Assembly (NCBI GenBank): GCA_951406725.2 | Contig: OX597832.1 | Location: forward strand, 48,732,001-48,796,000 | Direction of reading: 5' to 3' | Origin: Octopus vulgaris | Lineage: Eukaryota | DNA: 64,000 nt | Notes under the pieces: generated by a model | Told to the model about the DNA's origin: nothing | The model's database searches: none | Seen by the model: only the letters and a program-made list of their open reading frames with translations | Shown here: positions 5,187 through 53,138 of the stretch, piece by piece | How positions within the stretch are numbered: position 1 is the stretch's first letter | Layout of the letters: the number at the start of each line of letters is the position of its first letter | Made by a program: the position numbers and the translations under genes

Positions 5187-5660
<474 letters not shown>

Positions 5661-17156: not shown

Positions 17157-17249
17157 CATTGTTCCCTCTGAAGATATCATGCTCAGAAATATGAACTTAA
17201 TGTTTAATTAGTTCACTGTCTATAACTGAAACAGCTGTAAGGAATGATG
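17157..17249 (+). ncRNA. Type I hammerhead ribozyme, canonical core
   Basis: cauuguu(c)ccu CUGAAGA [long stem II with ugaac/guuca] GAAA CAGCUG UA aggaaugaug. Palindromic stem III ACAGCUGU. Lies in a TA-flanked cassette at about 17116-17400. Confidence 0.78.
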
Positions 17250-18410: not shown

Positions 18411-18454
18411 CTTTTACGTTTCAAGGTTTCGAGCCTAAGCTCTTCGTCAGAAAG
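18411..18454 (-). ncRNA. Minimal type I hammerhead ribozyme, canonical core
   Basis: Minus strand: cuuu CUGACGA a gagc-uuag-gcuc GAAAC cuugaaac GUA aaag. An 8-nt insertion duplicates GAAAC. Cassette at about 18263-18520 next to (TA)n. Confidence 0.78.
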
Positions 18455-24272: not shown

Positions 24273-24627
24273 ACACACCACACGCTACACATACACACAT
24301 ACACACAATGTTTGAAACTGCATATATATATATTATATATTATAATTAATTAATAAGGGTGAGAGAATTAGATACTAATTTAATAGTATATCTATTCAAC
24401 ACCAAGTGGCCCAGTGCTTCGAGAAACCTGGATTATTATAATATTTTATTATATATTATAATATTTTATACAAAAATAAATATAAGAGAATGGTCACTAT
24501 GTGGCTCATTCTAGCACTAGAAAATCCAAAAGGTTTCAACCACAAAAATACATGTTTCCCGTGAAAGTCAGTACGATTGTTAGCTCACACGAACAGGGCA
24601 AATAAAAAATAACAAAAATACAGATTA

Positions 24628-24708
24628 TTTTGGGACAATTGTTTCGCTATTAATGAATTAAATGTAATTTTACTTACAAAAAACCCACTTGTAGCTCCTC
24701 GGCCAAAA
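24628..24708 (-). ncRNA. Type I hammerhead ribozyme, U4C variant (repeat copy 1)
   Basis: Minus strand: uuuugg CCGAGGA gcua...uagc GAAA CAAUUG UC ccaaaa. Palindromic stem III ACAAUUGU. Confidence 0.8.
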
Positions 24709-25162
24709 CTATCTGGATGAAATCCACTCAATCACACGCCAGATTTTACCATGACGATAAATACACGTGTGGTTCAATTGATTACATCCGACGTTATAAT
24801 TCAAATGCCCCTACTAACAGCGCGCCAAACTTTCATGGAAACAAATACCACATTTAGAAATAAATGTAGCATAATTATAATTAATTAATAAGGGTGAGAG
24901 AATTAGATACTAATTTAATAGTATATCTATTCAACACCAAGTGGCCCAGTGCTTCGAGAAACCTGGATTATTATAATATTTTATTATATATTATGATATT
25001 TTATACAAAAATAAATATAAGAGAATGGTCACTATGTGGCTCATTCTAGCACTAGAAAATCCAAAAGGTTTCAACCACAAAAATACATGTTTCCCGTGAA
25101 AGTCAGTACGATTGTTAGCTCACACGAACAGGGCAAATAAAAAATAACAAAAATACAGATTA

Positions 25163-25243
25163 TTTTGGGACAATTGTTTCGCTATTAATGAATTAAATGT
25201 AATTTTACTTACAAAAAACCCACTTGTAGCTCCTCGGCCAAAA
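25163..25243 (-). ncRNA. Type I hammerhead ribozyme, U4C variant (repeat copy 2)
   Basis: Same sequence as 24628-24708. Confidence 0.8.
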
Positions 25244-25375
25244 CTATCTGGATGAAATCCACTCAATCACACGCCAGATTTTTGTATTATATATTATATA
25301 TATTTATGAAAAAATTTCATTGTTTTATTGTACAAACACACACACACACACACACACACTCACATATATATATAT

Positions 25376-28213: not shown

Positions 28214-28299
28214 GTCCCATGCTGATGAAGAAAATGGTTGGGTAAAGTATAATTCTATATTATTTATACCGATCAAATTCCGAAACGCGTACATGGGAC
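28214..28299 (+). ncRNA. Type I hammerhead ribozyme, canonical core
   Basis: gucccaug CUGAUGA a gaa..ugguugg...ccgauca..uuc c GAAA CGCG UA caugggac. Perfect 8-bp stem I; palindromic stem III ACGCGU. Cassette at about 28200-28475 lies in TA-rich DNA. Confidence 0.88.
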
Positions 28300-28762: not shown

Positions 28763-29602
28763 ATAGAGTTCCAAAAATGAGTGTATTTGAGTATTTTCAT
28801 AATTGTTTGTTACAATCTGCAGTTATTTGAAAGCATGTAACTTTGAAAGAGGTTTCAATGATTTTTCTGCTTACTTACTGCATATTTTCATATTCTCTGT
28901 TGAATCCATTGCAAAATAACTACAAATATATGGCGGTAGATTTATTTACAACACAATAGACCAATAACTGTTGATTGTAACAACAAACCTTTCTTATAAG
29001 TACATTTTCCTATGAAATCGAAGAAAATGGCGGCAAAGTGGAGGTAGACGATTACGGTACAGAAAGGCTGTGATAGATTGAATTGGAGTCATTACATCGT
29101 TTGTATATGCCTATGGAATATAATAAAATTATATGTAGGACATTGGTAGTTTTTGAAGCTTGGGTTCAGAGAAGTAATATTGTATTACATTGGGTATGGT
29201 ACTCTTAAGTGTGTGAAAAGAGTTTTTATTTTATTGCATATTCAGTTCAACATCAAAGAGTTAAAACGGAGTAACTTTCGTTTTAGTTTTCTTTATCCTA
29301 ATGTTTTCCATTTCCATATTACAAATTTATGATTTTCACATGTGATGCTATTCGGAAGTTGATAAAATAATACTTTACCAAGTGCATATCACTCTAAACG
29401 GCAGAGTTCATATATTTATGCTTGCTTTTATTTGCATTAGCATTCGAAACGATTGATATTTACTCTGTGCATATAGCGGATTTGGTGTTCAGATTTCTGT
29501 GGAGTGTCACCAGATGGAATTCACGCATTTATTTCATGATAGCATATCTTAAACGCTTCCTTAGTGATTTCAGATAGCATATCTTAAACGCTTCCTTAGT
29601 GA

Positions 29603-30370
29603 TTACATCGACCTCAGCACGCAACTGGTACTTAATTTATCGACCCCGAAAAATGAAAGGCAAAGTCGACCTCGGCGAAATTTGAACTCAGAACATAGCG
29701 ACAGGCGAAATACTCGTAAGCATTTCGCTCGACGTGCTAATGTTTCTTATTTCTTTATTGTCCACAAGGAGCTAAACATAGAGGGGACAAACAAGGACTG
29801 ACAAAGGGATTAAGTCGATTACATCGACCCCAGTCCGCAACTGGTACTTAATTTATCGACTTCCAAAGGATGAAAGGCAAAGTCGACCTCAGCGGAATTT
29901 AAACTCAGAACGAAAAGACAGACGAAATACCGCTAAGCGTTTCACCTGGCGTACTAACGTTTCTTATTTCTTTATTGCTCACGGGGGCCTAAACATAGAG
30001 GGGACAAACAAGGACAGACAAAGGCATTAAGTCGATTACATCGACCCCAGTCCGCAACTGGTACTTAATTCATCGACCCCGAAAGGATGAAAGTCAAAGT
30101 CGACCTCGGCAGAATTTAAACTCAGAACATAAAGACAGACGAAATACCTATTTCTTTACTACCCATAAGGGGCTAAACACAGAGAGGACAAACAAACGGA
30201 TTAAGTCGATTATATCGACCCCAGTGCGTAACTGGTACTTATTTAATCGACCCCGGAAAGATGAAAGGCAAAGTCGACCTCGGCGGAATTTGAACTCACA
30301 ACATAGCAGCAGACGAAATAACGCTAAGCATTTCACCCGGCGTGCTAACGTTTCTGCCAGCTCTCCGGCT
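29603..30370 (-). mobile_element. Tandem array of four family A SINE units
   Basis: gatta(c/t)atcgacc.cag..cg.aactggtactta...aaagtcgacctc recurs at about 29603, 29817, 30035 and 30208. Only the rightmost unit has the complete tRNA head. Confidence 0.92.
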
Positions 30371-53064: not shown

Positions 53065-53138
53065 TTAACTGACAGCTGTTTCTGCTTAGAGATGAAGGTC
53101 AGTGAGTGTGCATCATATCATATCTTCCTCGGGGCTTC
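53065..53138 (-). ncRNA. Decayed hammerhead-like motif (U4C)
   Basis: Minus strand: aagcc CCGAGGA ... GAAA CAGCUG UC aguu. Core and palindromic stem III are intact, but stems I and II pair poorly. Confidence 0.4.

Follow-up and report, generated by a model that had tools for sequence, protein, structure and literature searches.

A recent hammerhead retrozyme insertion in Octopus vulgaris, probably moved in trans by a Penelope-like element of the Hydra clade

Results

A partial tandem of a 535-bp hammerhead unit

The element studied here lies within a 64-kb stretch of Octopus vulgaris DNA, the whole of which is called the window. Its features, in window coordinates, are as follows.

24327..24340, no strand: left copy of a 14-bp target-site duplication (TSD), A/T only
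24339..25287, minus strand: the entire insertion, made up of a 535-bp monomer in 1.76 tandem units and a 5-nt remnant
24339..24747, minus strand: downstream 409-bp copy, ending at the family 3'-end site B (monomer ~293, window ~24341)
24748..24873, minus strand: 'spacer', the 126-bp part of the tandem unit that occurs once in the window copy
24874..25282, minus strand: upstream 409-bp copy; its 5' truncation point, 25282, is monomer position 422
24628..24708, minus strand: type I hammerhead 2; U4C at 24701, C17 at 24634
25163..25243, minus strand: type I hammerhead 1; stem I pairs 25243-25238 with 25168-25163, the core spans 25237-25231 and has U4C at 25236, and C17 is at 25169
24634..25168, minus strand: predicted 535-nt monomer, flanked by the two predicted cleavage sites
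25278..25287, plus strand: likely vestigial inverted second arm, which matches monomer positions 156-165 (site A), as read from the sequence
25288..25301, no strand: right copy of the 14-bp TSD

The first-pass annotation described two near-identical 409-bp direct repeats with a period of 535 bp around a 126-bp spacer, and this description is borne out: 24339-24747 and 24874-25282 are identical at 408 of 409 positions, the single mismatch being at 24460/24995. Its reading of the locus as a repeat-spacer-repeat element was wrong. As the family repeats in tandem with a 535-bp unit, the 'spacer' is simply the stretch of that unit present only once, and the window copy is a partial tandem of 1.76 units. 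The insertion also reaches 5 nt beyond the second repeat, to 25287, and has the 14-bp TSD on both sides; the proposal that it is recent is supported for the window copy. The monomer is non-coding, with longest ATG open reading frames of 23 aa in sense and 46 aa in antisense, and when folded as a circle it has a predicted energy of -137.0 kcal/mol (z -5.5 against 30 shuffles). No match to a Penelope-like element (PLE) protein was found in the window, and its open reading frame list gave no recognisable host gene around the insertion.

The hammerhead ribozymes

Each repeat was expected to carry a hammerhead on the minus strand, and both copies contain the motif UUUUGG CCGAGGA GCUA...UAGC GAAAC AAUU GUC CCAAAA. 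The cleavage coordinates put forward with it hold as predictions, with C17 at 25169 and 24634 and a predicted product running from 25168 to 24634 (535 nt). Hammerhead 1 has a stem II with a long loop and a palindromic stem III. The suggestion that this palindrome would let the two copies pair as a double hammerhead is feasible by folding prediction, at -177.0 kcal/mol versus -168.5 kcal/mol for two single ribozymes and -177.2 kcal/mol for the free minimum; the prediction agrees with the short, palindromic helix III of which the available text of PMC4209133 speaks. Searching the 64-kb window with Rfam at gathering score gave no matches.

The core of both window ribozymes is a U4C variant rather than the family-canonical CUGANGA. 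Exact core matches number 269 with U4 and G7 versus 11 with U4C, the latter at nine loci, and a further 2,488 matches, a count that takes in the terminal repeats of Hydra-clade PLEs, have a nucleotide other than G at N7. This position is variable (G, A and C among the matches listed), and the remaining core is constant. An alignment of 15 rows recovered stems I and II and contained compensatory pairs in stem I across subfamilies (one pair, for example, is C-G in 10 rows and U-A in 4); this conservation of core and stem I implies that cleavage is selected. The nine U4C loci have one broad haplotype in common, with signs of homoplasy or recombination, and U4C recurs in four of ten diverged alignment rows. 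According to the available text of Perreault et al. (PMC3088659), U4C considerably lowers activity in vitro yet allows viroid infectivity. Taken as predicted, weak hammerheads favoured by dimerisation would cut some sites. Contigs from three runs that are perhaps RNA, to which we give no evidential weight, span portions of the unit; they have the canonical U4 where the window copy has C.

The window also contains other hammerheads and a tandem repeat. A further type I hammerhead at 28216-28297 (plus strand) has a 6-bp stem I, a canonical core, a long loop II and a palindromic stem III, and its sequence is unrelated to the 535-bp family. Hammerhead-like motifs also occur at 17160-17245 (plus), at 18411-18454 (minus; resembling the minimal PLE type, with a short internal duplication) and at 53071-53132 (minus; a CCGAGGA core with a poor stem I). 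A 217-bp unit that is repeated 2.5 times in tandem at 29601-30148 resembles what we take to be a cephalopod SINE. Elsewhere in the genome, two near-identical type I hammerheads of another sequence family lie 594 bp apart (L207, minus strand, 6341 and 5747) and are possibly another retrozyme.

A young and abundant family

The genome searched comprises 2.8 Gb in 227 contigs. A search with the monomer gave at least 162 matches (39 of 1,214 candidates scored), and exact 22-mers from two positions of the unit matched 1,888 and 1,904 times, with no matches for the reversed controls; the family numbers about 1,900 units of the 535-bp repeat. Copies are 90-100% identical and form tandem arrays, the longest of about 13 units. 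The unit and the ends of the young family recur in a sister subfamily of about 70-80% identity.

By the sequence-level definition the locus is a metazoan non-LTR retrozyme, an element of a known kind. Its unit is a tandem repeat some hundreds of bp long with one type I hammerhead each, non-coding and of low GC content (32%), and the copies are dispersed, with TSDs of more than 4 bp, 5' ends spread over the unit and no fixed LTR. No examined copy of the unit runs on into a shared open reading frame. It does not appear to be the terminal repeat of a coding PLE, the few PLE matches near other copies being separate neighbouring elements; so is the PLE reading frame beside one U4C copy (L191), which lies across a TA tract. 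Neither the family nor its pairing with Hydra-clade PLEs appears in the literature searched; supplements and repeat databases may already hold the family.

The layout of copies varies within the family. Among the matches listed for C1-C6, most G7 copies stand alone on their strand (48 of 64 loci), A7 and C7 copies are often in long arrays, and copies of the diverged subfamily mostly amount to less than one unit. An 11-unit array on C28 at 10.73 Mb (L079) is a mosaic of two haplotypes in which a block of four units is repeated twice, by DNA duplication or from a multimeric template. Four loci on C1 (7.5, 205.7, 205.85 and 206.4 Mb; L310-L313) have a head-to-head junction in common, which suggests either segmental duplication or that an entire inverted insertion was copied again.

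Two fixed 3' ends, one on each arm

We surveyed the ends of 116 distinct loci, a non-random set picked by search hits from which one near-duplicate was dropped, using arms of at least 40 bp. The 3' ends of 188 arms fell at site A in 99 cases, at site B in 80 and elsewhere in nine (179/188 at A or B). Site A lies near monomer position 165, blurred by TA runs, and site B near 293, a spacing of about 128 nt; the 5' ends of the same loci are scattered over the unit. Among 66 head-to-head junctions, 57 combine A with B, one is A+A, one is B+B and seven involve another end. Flanks are mostly TA repeats, and TSDs of 10-16 bp are seen where the flanks are complex rather than simple repeats. Two fixed 3' ends about 128 nt apart, with usually one of each per head-to-head insertion, are new relative to the literature searched. 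The pattern agrees with what the available text of PMC8557442 describes for PLEs, namely tandem and inverted structures that have a tail on one side, and twin priming by a protein dimer may be its source. In vitro, the Poseidon element PAc cuts both strands and starts at two internal sites, with a predicted dimer and dispensable hammerhead cleavage, as given in the available text of PMC11167929.

The window copy has its 3' end at site B, and about 10 nt at its 5' joint match inverted site A. From the sequence, these are likely a vestigial second arm, which overlaps the main arm by 5 nt (25278..25287); the site-B arm would then measure 942 nt, against about 10 nt for the site-A arm.

We also examined 5' ends lying exactly at the predicted cleavage site, where seven of ten non-C matches are true truncations and in three the partner arm ends at positions 1-4. 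A control at position 52 gave 18 truncations of 23, favoured by TA microhomology and including two symmetric pairs, and a control at position 37 gave six clear and one unclear of 24, four of which have one junction in common. As control positions also yield truncations, a pile-up at the cleavage site is suggestive at most of cutting in vivo, and we rejected it as proof. A third control, position 515, was unusable: of the 30 of 145 matches examined, most came from the diverged sister subfamily. At three loci (L212, L215 and L220) both arms stop at the predicted cleavage site or within 4 nt of it. They look as if two cDNAs had run off a self-cleaved 5' end; a control position has symmetric junctions too.

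Probable circular and linear templates

Divergence within loci is 0.43% for tandem pairs (474 pairs, 73 loci) and 0.32% for inverted pairs (263 pairs, 50 loci); between loci it averages 3.08%. The nearest other locus is only a median 0.65% away (66 loci), so homogeneity alone cannot tell one circle from a young parent array. At 15 of 92 loci, 19 sample-private variants are fixed in every overlapping unit, for which unsampled parents may be the source. One array on C15 carries a rare variant in all six listed units of both arms, a variant found elsewhere in just three single units. Array-fixed variants differ in type from those confined to one unit, most of which are C>T and G>A. We counted 1,888 intact cleavage junctions and seven arms that begin exactly at this point, much as at the control positions.

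Other arrays record a different history. A variant is present in the 3'-most units of both arms and absent upstream at no fewer than two loci, on C3 at 37.72 Mb and on C15 at 51.14 Mb, and possibly at two more; a monomer circle cannot yield such arrays. Together with the four-unit mosaic on C28, these outer-unit variants point to multimeric templates or to expansion at the DNA level. Judged from these copies, some insertions of the family, those with homogeneous arrays and seamless junctions, were likely copied from a circular template; several others appear to derive from heterogeneous multimers, and we conclude that both template routes probably operate. The 1.76-unit window copy suits a linear multimer and a circle equally, and its route cannot be told. 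No sibling loci have unit-specific variants in common, all such pairs being at least 1.3% apart, and consequently no parent-child pair was found. An excess of A>G over T>C among array-fixed rare variants that might have pointed to A-to-I editing of an RNA intermediate (12 versus 4, p=0.01, 86 loci) was gone at 116 loci (10 versus 12), and editing was therefore rejected.

A candidate partner among Hydra-clade elements

Hydra-type PLEs, reached through the hammerhead pattern, are present in the genome, and their open frames measure 976-1,091 aa. The inspected protein has RWK, DKT and CxCx5C, the features that the available text of Craig et al. (2021, PMC8557442) gives as diagnostic of the Hydra clade; Pfam gave no match to the Hydra-type proteins. 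Their terminal repeats have the hammerhead layout of the 535-bp unit, with two 3' ends separated by about 116 nt. Among five copies with both ends visible, four have one end type per arm and the fifth is complex. When the hammerhead region was aligned to two Hydra families, the young unit scored z 4.3 and 3.5 and the old unit 3.3 and 8.8; a third Hydra family gave z 0.9 and 0.6, an unrelated hammerhead control 1.8 and 0.6, and a Neptune-like family 0.1-0.6. To a moderate degree, then, the retrozyme has terminal sequence and an insertion signature in common with an intact Hydra element of the same genome, as a passenger would.

A single chimera joins the two kinds of element. At L259, a Hydra arm (93-97% identical to L294) stands head to head with a retrozyme arm at a joint that has no TA tract. 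It is one of 180 distinct loci screened, it joins two long B-type ends contrary to the A+B rule, and the Hydra family involved has no likeness to the unit; for these reasons the partnership is likely and not proven. On sequence grounds, the 535-bp retrozyme is likely mobilised in trans by a Hydra-clade PLE.

A search for GIY-YIG proteins also recovered a young family of PLEs encoding 781 aa with RT and GIY-YIG, with many intact copies (for example L142, 2239-4581). The terminal repeat of that copy, near 5450-5500, has a hammerhead with a U3/A8 core variant. From its motifs we presume this family to be Neptune-like.

Discussion

We interpret the window locus as a recent, 5'-truncated, 1.76-unit insertion of a non-coding hammerhead retrozyme, likely mobilised by a Hydra-clade PLE in trans, and assign this reading a probability of roughly 0.7. 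The retrozyme or PLE-type identity proposed in the first-pass annotation is supported. Under this interpretation, arrays would be transcribed, and the hammerheads would cut some sites to give monomers, ligatable into circles, beside uncut multimers. A dimeric RT/GIY-YIG protein would nick a TA-rich target on both strands, at points some 10-16 bp apart, and each 3' end would prime within the RNA, one at site A about 165 nt past the cut and the other at site B about 293 nt past it. Both cDNAs would traverse the cleavage junction, halt at variable points and join head to head. Rolling round a monomer circle may have produced the homogeneous arrays in some events, and multimers may have been copied in others.

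A bolder proposal, which we hold tentatively and at slightly less than even odds, is that the Hydra dimer starts cDNA synthesis at two fixed sites of one passenger RNA, separated by about 128 nt, and can roll repeatedly round a ligated, ribozyme-made circle of 535 nt, writing multi-kilobase head-to-head arrays in one step; the chimera would then be a fossil of a complex loaded with both RNAs.

The strongest competitor, which we nevertheless consider rather unlikely, keeps the retrozyme and the PLE machinery and dispenses with the circle: templates would always be linear, mostly uncut multimers, and homogeneity would come from tandem expansion or conversion of DNA. The unit-specific variants common to the outermost units of both arms, the period-4 mosaic on C28 and further partial variants all suit it, as does the spread of the U4C lineage to nine loci despite a weakened core. 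Its appeal is increased by PAc, whose insertion in vitro is independent of hammerhead cleavage (PMC11167929, available text), and by the Xenopus retrozymes, of which eight of nine dimers were uncleaved in vitro in the available text of 10.64898/2026.07.22.740005. Linear copying, however, can only shorten arrays and retains heterogeneity, yet many haplotypes each make homogeneous arrays; variants common to inverted arms and the selection for cleavage noted above also speak against it.

A partner from another PLE clade, such as the 781-aa Neptune-like family, or an origin of the unit as the terminal repeat of an unfound autonomous element, is improbable. The 781-aa family is young, carries RT and GIY-YIG and likewise ends in TA repeats, and our PLE searches cover the best 150 of 6,136 and 148 of 11,372 candidates. 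Its terminal region, however, has no similarity to the unit, no shared reading frame adjoins the examined copies, and the sole chimera found pairs with Hydra. That a single-copy hammerhead-like sequence underwent local segmental duplication, or was doubled by the assembly, is a reading to which the 99.8% identity of the two window copies might lend colour, but it is very improbable given about 1,900 units of equal period genome-wide, the TSD, the family-typical 3' end and the one substitution separating the copies; the TSD and the family-wide period likewise make an assembly artefact at the window locus unlikely.

Retrozymes and their link to PLEs are already in print, and the locus by itself is ordinary. 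The value lies in the family, which is young, abundant and short, with intact candidate motors in the same genome and its insertion mechanism recorded in its copies; these show unusually clearly how insertions of such elements likely arise, a matter of specialist interest. Two questions become testable, namely which enzyme moves animal retrozymes and by what route PLEs come to form tandem and inverted copies with a single tail. For an in vitro assay of circular versus linear templates, a 535-nt RNA with two mapped priming sites and a protein of 980 aa suffice. If true, the twin-priming circle reading names the motor of an animal retrozyme, and twin priming accounts for the one-sided tail and inverted repeats of PLEs.

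Comparison with known systems

The closest relatives are the metazoan non-LTR retrozymes of Cervera and de la Pena (2020, PMC7229834) and of Li, Clavereau and Pollet (2026, 10.64898/2026.07.22.740005), which in the available text of both papers are likewise non-coding, low-GC tandems with a type I hammerhead per unit, occur as dimers to multimers, have TSDs of more than 4 bp and are linked to PLE terminal repeats. At 535 nt the octopus unit exceeds the 170-400 nt first reported and lies within the 51-972 bp of the 2026 preprint, as far as its available text goes. It differs in its long loop II (41 nt), and its circles and cleavage are predicted from sequence; two fixed priming sites, head-to-head arms and a Hydra partner do not figure in the available text of either paper.

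Plant LTR retrozymes similarly bracket a non-coding unit between two hammerheads and are predicted to circularise. In the available descriptions their ribozymes are of type III, and true LTRs, PBS/PPT and 4-bp TSDs are present; the locus is not of this type because of its type I topology, variable 5' ends and longer, 14-bp TSD.

Hydra-clade PLEs, in the available text of Craig et al. (2021, PMC8557442), resemble the family in the canonical hammerhead of their terminal repeat, their TA-repeat targets, their tandem and inverted structures and the extension at a single end, whereas the retrozyme unit has no open reading frame. The end-to-end extension is about 128 nt in the retrozyme and about 116 nt in the local Hydra family, versus 30-40 bp in that text.

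The Anolis carolinensis element Poseidon PAc (Frangieh et al., 2024, PMC11167929, available text) shares with our reading an AT-rich target, the cutting of both strands, reverse transcription from two internal sites 3' of the hammerhead and a predicted dimer. PAc differs in being autonomous, in belonging to another clade and in having its two sites adjacent, while the octopus family follows a near-strict rule of one site per arm, read from genomic copies.
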